Part shown: piece after piece, positions 37,861 to 41,451 of the stretch | How the letters are laid out: the number at the start of each line of letters is the position of its first letter | Position numbering within the stretch: the first letter of the stretch is position 1 | Source: an uncultured bacterium | GTDB lineage: Bacteria > Omnitrophota > Gorgyraeia > Zapsychrales > Aceulaceae | DNA length: 64,000 nucleotides | Direction of reading: 5' to 3' | Assembly (NCBI GenBank): GCA_937930175.1 | Contig: CALGLP010000006.1 | Coordinates: 65,749 to 129,748 of the forward strand | Position numbers and translations under genes: made by a program | The notes under the pieces: model-generated | The model's input: only the letters and a program-made list of their open reading frames with translations | Told to the model about the DNA's origin: nothing | Databases searched by the model: none

Positions 37861-39066
37861 GTGATGTTGGACTCATTAACACAAGGATTCTGTGTTGGAG
37901 GGTTTTTCTTGAAAAGAAAGTTTATAATTATTTTAATTCTAGCCATAGGGGTTAAGCTTTCTCTCTTCATATGTGGCACTATGAGTGTGCCTGAAAGCAG
38001 GATGATGCCGGATTCAGCTTCTTATATGGAAATTGCAAAGAACCTGGCTGAAAGGGGGCAATTTGAAAGGCAGGGTCCAAAGAGTGTTTTTGCGCCAGAG
38101 ATTTTGCGTACCCCCGGATATCCTTTTTTTCTTCTTTTTTTCCATCACTGTTTGAACATTCCTATCCTTGGCGTGCTTTTTATTCAACTTATGTTAACGG
38201 TTGCTGTAGGTGGGATAACTTATTTTATAGCTCAGCGTGTTGATAGTAAAATTGCGCTGCTTAGCGCCACAATTGTTTTATTTGACCCGCCTGTTTCTAT
38301 TTTTTCTGTTATGGTGTTGACTGAGGCTTTATTCTTGTTGTTATTAACAATATTTTTATTTCTCGTTATTCAATATATGAATGATAAGAAATTTTATTGG
38401 CTAGGGTGGTCAGCGCTTTCTTTGGCTTTAGCTACTTATGTTCGACCGATTGGTTATTTCTTAGCCATTCCTGTGGCGTGTTTTATCGTGTGCGTTCATC
38501 GTCGGTATGGCTTTAAGCGGGTCGTTGGACATATTTTGATATTTTTGGCTCTCGTTTATGGTTTGCTGGGGGCGTGGCAAGTTAGGAATTACTATTGTTG
38601 CGGCACTAGTTCTTTTGCAACGGTTGGTAATCAAAACTTTAGAAAACATGGCTTTTTTCGATCTTTTACACAGGAGAATGATCTTTTTTCTCAGGCAGTA
38701 AGTTTTGTCGATACGGGGTGGAGATGTTTTCTTTCTATGATGACGGAACCTGGATCCTTAAAATATTTTAAAAGCACGTTTGCAACGAAGATCGGGAAGT
38801 CTTTCTTTTATCCTTGGATGGCTTTCTGGTTTATGGGTTTCTTGGCAGGGTGTCTGTGTGTTAGAAAAGATACTCGCTATCAGTTTCTTTTTATGGTTAT
38901 TTTGTATTTTTTAGGAGTTACAATTTTAAATATTGGCTTTGCTGCATCTGACAGATTTCGCGTGCCGATTGTGCCGGCGATTGCTATCTTATCGGCTTAT
39001 GGATGGTCACAAATCGTTGCTTGGGCGCAAAAGATATGGTCGCGGAGGTGTTTTAAGTGTTGTTAA
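37861..39066 (+). CDS. polytopic membrane protein, putative lipid-carrier-dependent GT-C glycosyltransferase (ArnT/PMT-like)
   Basis: About 11 TM helices with an N-terminal periplasmic-loop PDSASYMEIAKNLAERG motif resembling GT39/GT83 enzymes; no other diagnostic motif. Confidence 0.5.
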   Translation: MMLDSLTQGFCVGGFFLKRKFIIILILAIGVKLSLFICGTMSVPESRMMPDSASYMEIAKNLAERGQFERQGPKSVFAPEILRTPGYPFFLLFFHHCLNIPILGVLFIQLMLTVAVGGITYFIAQRVDSKIALLSATIVLFDPPVSIFSVMVLTEALFLLLLTIFLFLVIQYMNDKKFYWLGWSALSLALATYVRPIGYFLAIPVACFIVCVHRRYGFKRVVGHILIFLALVYGLLGAWQVRNYYCCGTSSFATVGNQNFRKHGFFRSFTQENDLFSQAVSFVDTGWRCFLSMMTEPGSLKYFKSTFATKIGKSFFYPWMAFWFMGFLAGCLCVRKDTRYQFLFMVILYFLGVTILNIGFAASDRFRVPIVPAIAILSAYGWSQIVAWAQKIWSRRCFKCC

Positions 39067-39085: not shown

Positions 39086-39523
39086 ATGACTGTTTTGCAT
39101 AAAATCCTGATCAAAGATATTATGGTGACAAAGGTGATTTCTCTGGGCCTGGATGCCAAATTTAGCCAGGTTTGGGAGATGTTTACGGTTCATAAGATTC
39201 GCCACTTGCCGGTTGTGAATCATGAAAAAAAGCTCAAAGGCCTTATCACGCAAAGGGACTTTTATCGCATTGTTCCACCGCGTAGAGAAGTGGAGGATGA
39301 TGGATCTTTTTATTTAAATGAAGAGCTTGATAAGTTTATCCTGCAGAAAGTCATGACGCAGAGCGTCATGACGCTTTTACCCCAAGATACCCTGGGAAAG
39401 GCGATCAATGTGATGGTTACACGAAAATACGGATGCCTTCCTATTGTTGATGAAAAAGGTATTTTGGTTGGAATTCTTACCCAGACAGACGCCCTCCGGG
39501 CGATCGCCAATTATTTTCTCTAA
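39086..39523 (+). CDS. CBS domain pair protein
   Basis: Two CBS repeats (IMVTKVISL... and GCLPIVDEKGILVGILTQTD). Strong GAGGAGGAAAG RBS before ATG 39086; the ORF track start 38933 overlaps the upstream gene. Confidence 0.75.
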   Translation: MTVLHKILIKDIMVTKVISLGLDAKFSQVWEMFTVHKIRHLPVVNHEKKLKGLITQRDFYRIVPPRREVEDDGSFYLNEELDKFILQKVMTQSVMTLLPQDTLGKAINVMVTRKYGCLPIVDEKGILVGILTQTDALRAIANYFL

Positions 39524-39586
39524 TATTATAATTGTGTACTTAGCTAATTTTTAAGAAATAAAATGGCAAATTTGTGTCTTTTTAGT

Positions 39587-39614
39587 TTGACTCTTTGAAC
39601 CTCTATATTATAAT
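39587..39614 (+). promoter_or_regulatory. sigma70-like promoter (-35 TTGACT, 16-nt spacer, -10 TATAAT)
   Basis: TTGACT at 39587-39592 and TATAAT at 39609-39614. The -10 box lies inside operator palindrome 1. Confidence 0.55.
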
Positions 39615-39633
39615 GAGCATATGCTCATTATAA
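39608..39633. promoter_or_regulatory. perfect 26-bp palindrome TTATAATGAGCATATGCTCATTATAA (operator site 1)
   Basis: Its reverse complement is identical to itself. Overlaps the -10 element. Confidence 0.7.
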
Positions 39634-39641
39634 ATGGGCGG

Positions 39642-39667
39642 TTATAATGAGCATATGCTCAGAATAA
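39642..39667. promoter_or_regulatory. second copy of the palindrome core TGAGCATATGCTCA (operator site 2)
   Basis: TTATAATGAGCATATGCTCAGAATAA. The 14-bp core is perfect and the flanks are imperfect. Centre-to-centre distance 34 bp from site 1, 52 bp upstream of the DUF134 start. Confidence 0.65.
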
Positions 39668-39718
39668 ATAGGCTAAAAAATAGGGTAAGCAGGGAAGAGG
39701 TAATAGAGGAAAAAATGC

Positions 39719-40144
39719 ATGGAAAAAAGAGGTAGGCCAAAAAAGGTTCGATACATCCAGCGAATGCCTAAGGTTACCCTTTTTAGCCCTAGAGGAAAGC
39801 CTGGGCGTCCAGATGAAATACTTTTAAGCATTGATCAATACGAAGCTTTGAAGCTTGCAGATTATCAGGGCTTTGATCAGGTTCAAGGCGCGATTGTTAT
39901 GAAGGTTTCAAGACCTAGTTTTGGACGCATTTTAAGAAGCGCTCGCAAGAACGTTTCAGATGCCTTGGTTAATGGCAAGATCATTAAAATAGGCATTGGC
40001 GACACCCAGATCGGGGTCAGATCCAAGGAGTTCATTTCGATGCGCGAAATAGGCATCCTTAAAGAACGCCGCGCTAATGATAGGCGCCAATCTGACCGAA
40101 GGGTCAGTTTTGGTGGTCAATCTCCTGACCAAAATCCAGTCTAA
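39719..40144 (+). CDS. DUF134/UPF0251 family predicted DNA-binding protein
   Basis: GRPKKVRYI...LSIDQYEALKLADYQGF...VSRPSFGRILRSARKNVSDALVNGKIIKI matches the conserved DUF134 pattern (RPKKxR...EExEAxRLxDxEGL...VSRxTFxRxLxxARxKxAxALVxGKAIxI). AGAGGA RBS. Confidence 0.8.
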   Translation: MEKRGRPKKVRYIQRMPKVTLFSPRGKPGRPDEILLSIDQYEALKLADYQGFDQVQGAIVMKVSRPSFGRILRSARKNVSDALVNGKIIKIGIGDTQIGVRSKEFISMREIGILKERRANDRRQSDRRVSFGGQSPDQNPV

Positions 40145-40152
40145 TTCCCGAT

Positions 40153-40195
40153 TTACTTAAACTTACCGATTTTCCTCTTACTTAAACTTACCGAT
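40153..40195. repeat. two 18-bp direct repeats TTACTTAAACTTACCGAT, 25-bp period
   Basis: Read directly. Related ACTTACCGGG at 40603-40612 and an inverted ATCGGTAA at 40960-40967. Confidence 0.6.
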
Positions 40196-40337
40196 ATTAC
40201 ATATGGTCTTGCGGATGGGTGGATGAAATTGCGGTAAGTTTTTAACCGTTTCTTTTGAAAGCGGATCAAACCTAACGGCGTTAGACGTTGGGCGCTACCA
40301 TAGATCTTAATATGTAAATATATGTAAGGGATGCAAG

Positions 40338-40364
40338 GAATGTAAAGAATGTAAAGAATGTCAA
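40338..40364. repeat. 3x tandem 9-mer GAATGTAAA
   Basis: Read directly; degenerate ATGTAAA/ATGTAAG copies just upstream. Confidence 0.6.
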
Positions 40365-40983
40365 ACGTTGAGCCAGCTCTAAAGCTAGAGGATTTTATTG
40401 CCAAAGATAAGCCCAATACCAATCAATAAGCCAGCCGTAAAGACCCTATGTAAAGACTATAAATGATGATAAATCTCTCTATATAACTACTTCCTATAAT
40501 ATATCTTATGTTAACTAGAATATATAGAAATGTATGATGTAAGTTGTTGTTAGCAATGTACTTATGATATTGTAGGAATTGCCTGTTGATAACTGTTTCC
40601 AAACTTACCGGGATTATGATGCCCTGTTTAAATCAGACATAATTTTGACAAATCTTGCCAGGTATTATGCATTTTATTGATGTTTAGATGTATTTTATCA
40701 TGAGTTAGTTTATGTATTTGTTTCTCGCCAGTTTCCCCTGTTTTTTGCAGGATATTACTTATTGTCTTTGCATATGGCTAGGATGGAATTTTACCTCTTT
40801 TGTAGGATGTCACAACAGCTTACCCGCCATTATTTCGATGGTGGACTTGCTTGCCACTGATTTTATGGGGTTTACATTGCCTTGATGATTTAGGATTGCT
40901 TATTTTGGAGTGCTTGGCTCTAGTTTGTGCATTTCTTTTAATGTAAACTGAATAGAAAATCGGTAAAATTTTGATAGAAAAAG

Positions 40984-41014
40984 GGCCCTGTTTTTTGTTC
41001 AAAAACAGGGCCCC
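40984..41014 (-). terminator. intrinsic terminator hairpin (13-bp perfect stem GGGCCCTGTTTTT / AAAAACAGGGCCC, 5-nt loop) with flanking A/T tracts
   Basis: Perfect inverted repeat. On the minus strand it is followed by TTTTTCTATC and lies 30 nt after the stop of the 41044-41451 gene. It may terminate transcription in both directions. Confidence 0.8.
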
Positions 41015-41043
41015 ACAAAGCGCAAATTCCCTAGTATTTTTGC

Positions 41044-41451
41044 CTAAAAAACAACCCCTTGCGGTGTCTGATCGTTTTGGCTCATGGCTTCGGCCTCAAC
41101 AATGGATATCTCAACAAGCACCATATTTTGGTCTTCAGGGCCTGAAAAATACTGCCTCAACATTGGCATTTGCTCCCACATAAGCTCGCGCTTGGCCGTG
41201 TCTGTGGTAACTTTTGCTTTTCCAGCCAATCGGCAATACGCCATTTTCCGGTCAACAAAACAAAGCTCAACTTGAGGGTTTTTTTGGATTTGGGCAAGGC
41301 TTCTGCGGCCATTAAAAAGCGCTGCTAAAAAAGTGTTATTTTCAGTCAAATATGGCGCAATCGCGCGAACGCGCGGTTGATTTCCTTCCGTGGTTGCCAG
41401 AAACCCAAAACCAGCATCTTTAATCAGGTCAATAGCGGCTTGTTTGTCCAT
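41044..41451 (-). CDS. pyridoxamine 5'-phosphate oxidase-like FMN-binding split-barrel protein
   Basis: GFGFLATTEGNQPRVRAI...VELCFVD pattern of PNPOx-like proteins. Confidence 0.7.
   Translation of the reverse strand: MDKQAAIDLIKDAGFGFLATTEGNQPRVRAIAPYLTENNTFLAALFNGRRSLAQIQKNPQVELCFVDRKMAYCRLAGKAKVTTDTAKRELMWEQMPMLRQYFSGPEDQNMVLVEISIVEAEAMSQNDQTPQGVVF

Follow-up and report, generated by a model that had tools for sequence, protein, structure and literature searches.

Which protein recognizes the twin palindromes that lie directly in front of a DUF134 gene in an uncultured bacterium of the phylum Omnitrophota, and what would its binding do to the promoter of that gene? The palindromes are located in the segment 39586–39720 of a 64,000-nucleotide stretch of DNA (contig CALGLP010000006.1, positions 65,749–129,748; hereafter referred to as the window), immediately upstream of a gene that encodes a protein of the DUF134/UPF0251 family. 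The comparative analysis presented here indicates that the DUF134 protein itself very likely binds these sites. The segment as a whole is probably an autoregulated DUF134 promoter in which one operator occludes the promoter and a second site acts cooperatively.

Twin Palindromes at a Predicted Promoter

The best sigma70-like match between positions 39000 and 41500 of the window is TTGACT-16-TATAAT, which agrees with the consensus at 11 out of 12 positions and has a 16-nt spacer. Its −10 box is enclosed by a perfect 26-bp palindrome (operator O1, TTATAATGAGCATATGCTCATTATAA) whose center coincides with the predicted transcription start (~39621). The 14-bp core of this palindrome, TGAGCATATGCTCA, recurs as an exact copy in a second operator (O2) upstream of the Shine–Dalgarno-like sequence and the ATG of the DUF134 gene (34 bp from core start to core start), a position that would correspond to DNA encoding the 5′ untranslated region (5′ UTR) if transcription begins at the predicted site. 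The right flank of O2 is imperfect (GAATAA instead of TTATAA). A repeat analysis of the window identified a direct repeat of 32 nt, 91% identical between its two copies, that holds both operators; O1 and O2 therefore represent one 34-bp unit that was duplicated in tandem and not two independent palindromes (table 1).

The core sequence, allowing up to two mismatches, is found at only two places in the 64 kb (0.22 expected), and two or more such occurrences were seen in 2 out of 100 shuffles of the window. No palindrome in the window is longer than the 26-bp one: its arms measure 13 nt, compared with 8 nt for the next longest, and arms of 13 nt were also reached in 1 out of 100 mononucleotide shuffles. 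A scan with a 26-bp position weight matrix (PWM, see below) scored O1 at 36.5 bits and O2 at 35.6 bits, with all other positions below 10 bits, and found no further copy of the box in the window. An earlier note, made from the letters of this DNA, had described a near-consensus sigma70 promoter, a perfect 26-bp palindrome that contains the −10 box of this promoter, and a second core 34 bp downstream, before the ribosome-binding site of the DUF134 gene, and it had judged a chance origin of the palindromes improbable; all three readings hold.

Conservation of the Palindromes among the Omnitrophota

A total of 80 DUF134 loci from species-representative Omnitrophota genomes were chosen for comparison (protein identity 49–89%), and the comparison of their sequences argues for selection on the palindromes. 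In four species (the window and loci L005, L006, and L007) the intergenic DNA 5′ of DUF134 has become unalignable except for the two cores with their A/T flanks, which are invariant, as is their spacing of 34 bp. The operators thus stand out in these loci as a phylogenetic footprint. The close relatives L005, L006, L007, and L009 also carry a −35-like hexamer 16–17 nt upstream of TATAAT. Overall, about 60 of the 80 loci have the 14-mer, with up to three mismatches, in the 300 bp that precede DUF134, and the remaining loci bear the related dyad TGAGTA-NN-TACTCA.

A symmetrized 26-bp PWM was built from 98 sites, giving the full operator consensus TTATWA-TGAGCATATGCTCA-TWATAA. Applied to ~397 kb around 83 DUF134 genes, the PWM produced 112 matches in the 220 bp that precede each gene and a single match elsewhere. 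Dispersal of the motif over many non-promoter positions, in the manner of a repeat, had been named beforehand as the outcome that would speak against operator function; the opposite distribution was found. Successive sites are spaced by exactly 34 bp in 37 pairs at a strict threshold and in 46 pairs at a looser one. Depending on the locus, the proximal site lies 8 to 104 nt before the start codon; with the spacing between the sites fixed, O2 is thus placed relative to O1 and not relative to the ribosome-binding site. A recognizable (predicted) promoter is present in 49 loci, and in each of them the −10/+1 region is covered by the distal site. Three geometries occur: the end of the −10 box relative to the core falls at −1 in 22 loci (the geometry of the window), at +5 in 11, and inside the core (−12) in 11. 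Structural covariation of the palindrome flanks, as expected for a hairpin or cruciform, was considered and rejected: within-locus symmetry (377) exceeds the value expected between loci (343) only modestly, and the excess is mostly explained by the symmetry of the consensus itself.

Operator Sequence Changes with Residue 65 of the DUF134 Protein

The window protein matches the DUF134 family (PF02001) with 77.9 bits (cut-off 27) over residues 1–96, which is its sole Pfam match, and its top homologues all bear PF02001. These homologues belong to Candidatus Omnitrophota, with 'Ca. Aceula' as the nearest named genus. The protein consists of a basic N-terminal arm (RGRPKK) followed by a helix-turn-helix (HTH, residues 54–85) in which Arg65 opens the recognition helix. 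The core of the AlphaFold2 model (residues 31–100) has a predicted local distance difference test score (pLDDT) of about 86–95 and contains helices at residues 38–49, 54–61, and 65–85, with residues 65 and 69 at the start of the third helix of the HTH. A Foldseek comparison superposes the HTH core on region 4 of sigma-70 and on the DNA-binding domain of DeoR (0.6–0.9 Å). A profile search of the PDB gave a match to a DeoR-type HTH that spans only 38 residues (E = 0.03, ISRPTVSRLL versus VSRPSFGRIL) and aligns Arg65 of DUF134 with Arg39 of DeoR, a residue that makes base contacts in the solved complex (PMC11229326). The PDB contains no solved DUF134 structure, Pfam and NCBIfam label the family as 'hypothetical' or of 'unknown function' and list no characterized member, and the searchable literature on DUF134, UPF0251, COG1342, PF02001, DUF5320, and the motif string returned nothing relevant.

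Two types of DUF134 protein within the Omnitrophota are associated with two types of operator. Proteins with Arg65 and Gly69 (helix S-R-x-x-F-G-R) are preceded by C5/G10 boxes (GAGCA/TGCTC) in 53 out of 54 loci, and those with Gln65 and Ser69 (helix S-Q-Q-x-F-S-R) by T5/A10 boxes (GAGTA/TACTC), with both half-sites in 20 out of 24 loci and one half-site in the other four. Five proteins with Arg65 retain GAGCA boxes although, by overall similarity, they are marginally closer to the Gln clade. In the metagenome sample described below, all 75 alignable DUF134 proteins adjoining a GAGCA box carry Arg65. Residue 69 is glutamine in 41 of them, glycine in 32, and alanine in two, and since it varies beside GAGCA boxes, residue 65 is the discriminating one. 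Arginine with guanine and glutamine with adenine are the classical recognition pairings. Taken from the sequences compared, the predicted recognition rule would pair Arg65 with G:C and Gln65 with A:T at operator base 5/10, and this covariation lends computational support to DUF134 itself, which the earlier note had named, alongside an unlinked dimeric regulator, as the likely binder.

The Gln65 clade (L052, L056, L058, L059, L061, L065, and L069–L088) has a single TGAGTA-NN-TACTCA operator upstream of DUF134. The operator is followed by a conserved leader, AATAAATAGGGCGTTAAAA-ARGTAAG-N3-ARGTAAA, composed of direct repeats with 10-nt phasing that occupy the place of the second operator in the clade of the window, and copies of the GTAAG repeat lie between the operator and the start codon.

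The Box beyond the Omnitrophota

Metagenome contigs were scanned for a perfect core with A/T flanks, and the following counts refer to the 120 contigs among the matches listed. In 79 of them the box is followed within 300 bp by the start of a DUF134 gene, and a further ten contigs end too near the box to judge. Most of the box-linked DUF134 proteins are not of the Omnitrophota type: they begin with 'MPRPxKCRRV...', are encoded on contigs of 29–66% GC, and are in some cases fused to NifX-like domains. The non-Omnitrophota loci usually contain a single box 30–45 bp before the start codon, and twin sites at 34 bp are rare (one case among the listed contigs).

The remaining 31 contigs, from genomes of up to 70% GC, present many of their sites in a TTGACA-N17-TATAAT layout or as perfect palindromes of 30–34 bp. 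Genes preceded by the box and confirmed by Pfam encode DUF5320 (4), Nitro_FeMo-Co/NifX-like (2), and rhodanese (2) proteins as well as FeS_assembly_P/DUF59, DUF364+DUF4213, and an ARMT1-like protein; from the reading of open reading frames (ORFs) alone, a CoA-disulfide-reductase-like protein and others can be added. Since phyla other than the Omnitrophota have the same box in front of DUF134 and of further genes, TGAGCATATGCTCA seems to be a box of the DUF134 family as a whole, and the candidate regulon looks as if it leans toward metal-cluster and sulfur handling. Homologues of DUF5320, NifX-like, and DUF59 proteins were not found in the 64-kb window.

In four metagenome loci (L102, L107, L109, and L195, including genomes of 64–70% GC) the box is part of a perfect 30–34 bp palindrome whose outer arms differ by locus (e.g., TCCGCTATTA-core-TAATAGCGGA). 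The differing arms may represent extended recognition or local hairpin-templated symmetry.

Proposed Mechanism and Alternative Explanations

The proposed mechanism is that each TGAGCATATGCTCA palindrome would be occupied by a dimer of DUF134, a small protein with an HTH similar to sigma region 4 and DeoR. Arg65, the residue that opens the recognition helix, would contact the G:C pair found at positions 5 and 10 of the core, and the symmetric A/T-rich flanks (TTATWA) would be read by the basic N-terminal arm. AT-hooks consist of a GRP core with flanking basic residues and bind the minor groove of A/T-rich DNA. AT-hook-like stretches can be read at residues 3–11 (KRGRPKKVR) and 27–31 (KPGRP) of the window protein, and the notion that the RGRPKK arm may read the operator flanks is a lead only. 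A dimer bound to O1 would exclude RNA polymerase, as this operator extends over the −10 box and the predicted start. A second dimer on O2 (~+34) would contribute cooperativity through a dimer of dimers, or act as a roadblock, and the outcome would be negative feedback on DUF134 synthesis that is relieved by some signal. The earlier note had likened one operator over the −10 box and a second one downstream to a repressor arrangement, a comparison that the fixed spacing and the promoter overlap support computationally.

Several points weigh against this model. The evidence for autoregulation is comparative and computational throughout. The spacing of 34 bp corresponds to ~3.2 helical turns, which would place the two dimers on different faces of the DNA unless the DNA is distorted; a dimer of dimers would require such a distortion and is a proposed element of the model. 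The overall pLDDT of the AlphaFold2 model is only moderate (71.5). The switch from Arg to Gln and from C to T probably happened once, so that the covariation amounts to essentially one evolutionary event, albeit in the chemically expected direction. Furthermore, the metagenome counts refer to the 120 contigs listed, for which a perfect core was required, and cannot give the fraction of DUF134 genes that carry a box.

One alternative retains DUF134 as the binding protein and assigns it a different effect, namely activation, a dual switch, or a roadblock or attenuator at O2. The location of O2 in the predicted transcribed leader, the almost equal conservation of O1 and O2 (1.76 and 1.87 mismatches), and the single sites close to the start codon in non-Omnitrophota loci are in line with such an effect. 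However, the distal site lies over −10/+1 in every locus with a recognizable promoter, which is incompatible with classical activation, and on balance a departure from simple autorepression is considered unlikely.

The DUF134 gene could instead be one member of the regulon of an unlinked dimeric regulator that binds the palindromes, given that palindromes by themselves do not name their binder and that the metagenome box also precedes genes for DUF5320, NifX-like, DUF59, rhodanese, and other proteins. An unlinked regulator would, however, not predict that the operator base changes with residue 65 of DUF134, independent of the overall phylogeny. The box also accompanies DUF134 genes across phyla (79 of the 120 listed contigs) and is almost confined to the DNA upstream of DUF134 in the 397 kb of Omnitrophota loci, which makes an unlinked binder quite unlikely.

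It is very unlikely that the palindromes function as RNA hairpins in the 5′ UTR that affect stability or translation. O2 would be fully transcribed and folds at −7.3 kcal/mol, and the O1 26-mer folds at −12.1 kcal/mol, but one half of O1 precedes the predicted start and the distance of O2 is fixed to O1 instead of the ribosome-binding site. The sequence itself is conserved, beyond what pairing requires, and the mismatches in the core favor neither wobble pairing nor one of the strands (39 compatible with G·U in the sense strand, 44 in the antisense strand, and 42 others). A check for RNA elements returned nothing at the Rfam gathering thresholds in the whole window, with only sub-threshold terminator-like matches at 40100–41100, and found no tRNA or tmRNA genes. 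Finally, it is extremely improbable that the two units lack operator function and are simply duplicated promoters or a repeat of local or mobile nature: each 34-bp unit contains a TATAAT and the pair is a tandem duplication, but the second TATAAT has no usable −35 element since that position falls within O1, the invariant GAGCA..TGCTC dyad is unexplained by promoter function, and the element is not dispersed and keeps its position across the whole phylum.

Comparison with Known Systems

An autoregulated HTH repressor with tandem operators is a well-known kind of system. In lambda CI/Cro at OR, LexA, and TetR, a dyad operator over −10/+1 together with a nearby second site provides negative feedback, and the predicted DUF134 circuit shares the logic of these classical autorepressors and has no homology to them. 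The nearest solved relatives of the DUF134 DNA-binding domain are DeoR and CggR of Bacillus subtilis, members of the SorC family (Foldseek root-mean-square deviation 0.7 Å). DeoR and CggR bind palindromic half-operators as dimers and form a tetramer on two half-operators at or next to the promoter (PMC11229326), and CggR likewise regulates its own operon. DUF134 differs from both in its operator sequence, in the spacing of its sites (34 bp compared with roughly 21–23 bp), and in its additional elements, a basic arm at the N-terminus and a beta-hairpin/C-terminal helix. Pfam detects no SorC sugar-phosphate effector domain in the 141-aa protein, which places it outside the SorC/DeoR family, and the resemblance is limited to the DNA-binding domain. 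A match to sigma region 4 extends over ~47 residues, and neither sigma region 2 nor any sigma-factor Pfam match was found in the protein, which is thus not a member of the sigma factors.

Linkage to a dif-Like Site

Downstream of the DUF134 gene, and separated from its stop codon by 344 bp, the window contains a single dif-like site that is 25/28 identical to the dif site of B. subtilis and 20/28 identical to that of Escherichia coli (canonical sequences from PMC3025954). The block has the 11-nt arm, 6-nt center, and 11-nt arm of a dif site, with conserved arms and a variable center (invariant columns ATAAT and TTATGT.A in alignment A3), and the candidate explanation of this ultra-conserved 28-nt block as an RNA gene was dropped upon its identification as dif. 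A dif-like block lies 3′ of the DUF134 stop codon in 76 out of 84 Omnitrophota loci, usually at a distance of 16–380 bp, and is often 100% identical between loci whose proteins share only ~50% identity. Only 5 of the 120 listed metagenome contigs carry the block, at least two of which (L150 and L170) also have the 34-bp dual site, and the linkage of DUF134 and dif is therefore specific to the Omnitrophota. On the sequences compared, this linkage is phylum-wide and unreported.

The large ORFs of the window converge on dif, with nearly all on the plus strand left of ~39.5 kb and nearly all on the minus strand right of ~41 kb. A GC skew analysis of the window showed no change of sign that would confirm a terminus: the skew is positive on both sides of dif, with a value of about 0.17 to the left, ~0 at 40–46 kb, and about 0.12 thereafter. 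The GC content of the window rises to 0.48 at 44–50 kb. A rearrangement, an island, or a join made at dif during assembly could account for this pattern.

To the right of dif, a TGTGGAWAA-like motif resembling a DnaA box is found +94 to +96 nt from the dif start in 42 out of 45 loci. The module in which it lies (40517–40663, alignment A3) also contains TGrnCATATTG beside dif, an IHF-like TAAnnnnTTG, AGTTA, ACTTAC repeats (40601–09), and a TTGACA-like element ~150 nt from dif, and its motifs keep fixed distances. RNAalifold predicted no consensus RNA structure (0 pairs) for this conserved module of ~130 nt.

Small proteins that bind DNA and are encoded in the terminus region are known from tus-TerB in E. 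coli and rtp-IRI in B. subtilis, each of which is autoregulated via a high-affinity site over its own promoter. The DUF134 gene resembles both in having two strong sites and in its proximity to dif. Unlike Tus and RTP, to which it has no homology, DUF134 matches only its own family, its sites have no built-in polarity, in contrast to Ter, because they are symmetric, and outside the Omnitrophota the protein appears to behave as an ordinary transcription factor. In the 23 kb examined beyond dif no DUF134 boxes were found, an arrangement that does not correspond to a replication terminator, with its polar sites of opposed orientation to either side of the terminus. A gene kept directly beside the chromosomal dif across a lineage is also known from the xerS-difSL and xerH-difH modules, where the linked gene encodes the recombinase; DUF134, in comparison, is an HTH protein whose distance to dif is variable (16–380 bp from the stop codon). 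It is doubtful that the DUF134 gene, the twin palindromes, and dif together form a terminus module with a chromosome-level role beyond self-repression. If they do, the DUF134–DNA complex might mark the neighborhood of dif or form a barrier there, in the manner of tus-TerB and rtp-IRI; alternatively, FtsK/XerCD acting at dif might strip off the repressor and thereby let the gene fire a single time in each division.

Other Features of the Locus

The coordinates of the features are collected in table 1. The DUF134 transcript probably terminates at the long hairpin after the gene (RNAfold of 40140–40262: −22.6 kcal/mol). Copies of a GTAAG repeat make up this hairpin: the exact 15-mer GGTAAGTTTAAGTAA occurs twice, together with an inverted partial copy (40153–40167, 40178–40192 on the minus strand, and 40232–40241 on the plus strand). 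The same 15-mer is located directly before the DUF134 start codon in the distant loci L059 and L070. A function of the GTAAG repeats as FtsK-orienting (KOPS-like) words was rejected, as they display neither strand skew nor enrichment in the window. The gap between DUF134 and dif contains about four copies of tandem 9-nt repeats (ATGTAAAGA/ATGCAAGGA, 40322–40365), for which a limited look at relatives revealed no conservation.

Among the neighboring genes, the upstream CBS-pair gene was tested as a conserved partner of DUF134 and rejected, being linked in only 3 out of 83 loci. The PNPOx-like gene, which lacks a DUF134 box, is a conserved neighbor of DUF134 in 32 out of 83 loci. A strong, GC-rich 14-bp hairpin with T-runs on both sides (GGGCCCTGTTTTT/AAAAACAGGGCCC, 40982–41014) is probably a bidirectional terminator that ends the PNPOx gene. 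An ORF of 57 aa (40712–40885) is called as a gene in the annotation of the identical contigs L001 and L002 but is probably not a real gene, since it has no Pfam match and is not conserved in L009, a relative with 89% identity.

Table 1. Features around the DUF134 gene (positions refer to the window).
Feature	Position	Strand	Remarks
CBS-pair gene	39086–39523		Upstream of DUF134
−35 hexamer TTGACT	39587–39592	+	Read from the window sequence; sigma70-like promoter scan
−10 hexamer TATAAT	39609–39614	+	Final T is base 1 of the operator core
Operator O1, perfect 26-bp palindrome TTATAATGAGCATATGCTCATTATAA	39608–39633		Core TGAGCATATGCTCA at 39614–39627
Operator O2	39642–39667		Exact 14-bp core TGAGCATATGCTCA at 39648–39661
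Tandem duplication of 34-bp unit	39608–39673	+	Direct repeat 39608–39639/39642–39673
Shine–Dalgarno-like GAGG (putative)	39706–39709	+	9 nt 5′ of ATG; from reading of the sequence
DUF134/UPF0251 gene, 141 aa	39719–40144	+	Pfam, orthologues, AlphaFold2 model, Foldseek, covariation
Long hairpin AAACTTACCG/CGGTAAGTTT, then U-run	40159–40241	+	Inverted repeats I2 and I18
dif-like XerC/D site ACTTCCTATAATATATCTTATGTTAACT	40489–40516	+	28 nt; similarity to canonical dif
DnaA-box-like TGTTGATAA and AAACTTACC	40584–40592 and 40601–40609		Right of dif; alignment A3
PNPOx-like (FMN-binding split-barrel) gene	41044–41451	−	Convergent with DUF134

Implications for the DUF134 Family

DUF134/UPF0251 (COG1342) is a widespread family of bacteria and archaea, and the operator described here is the first DNA motif (14–26 bp) predicted for it. 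The window locus and its relatives offer a one-residue recognition rule and suggest a likely mode of action, twin-operator autorepression. The boxes in other phyla add a candidate regulon of genes for DUF5320, NifX-like Nitro_FeMo-Co, DUF59/FeS-assembly, DUF364, and rhodanese proteins. Within the Omnitrophota, the linkage of DUF134 to dif may provide an entry into the chromosome biology of an uncultured phylum.

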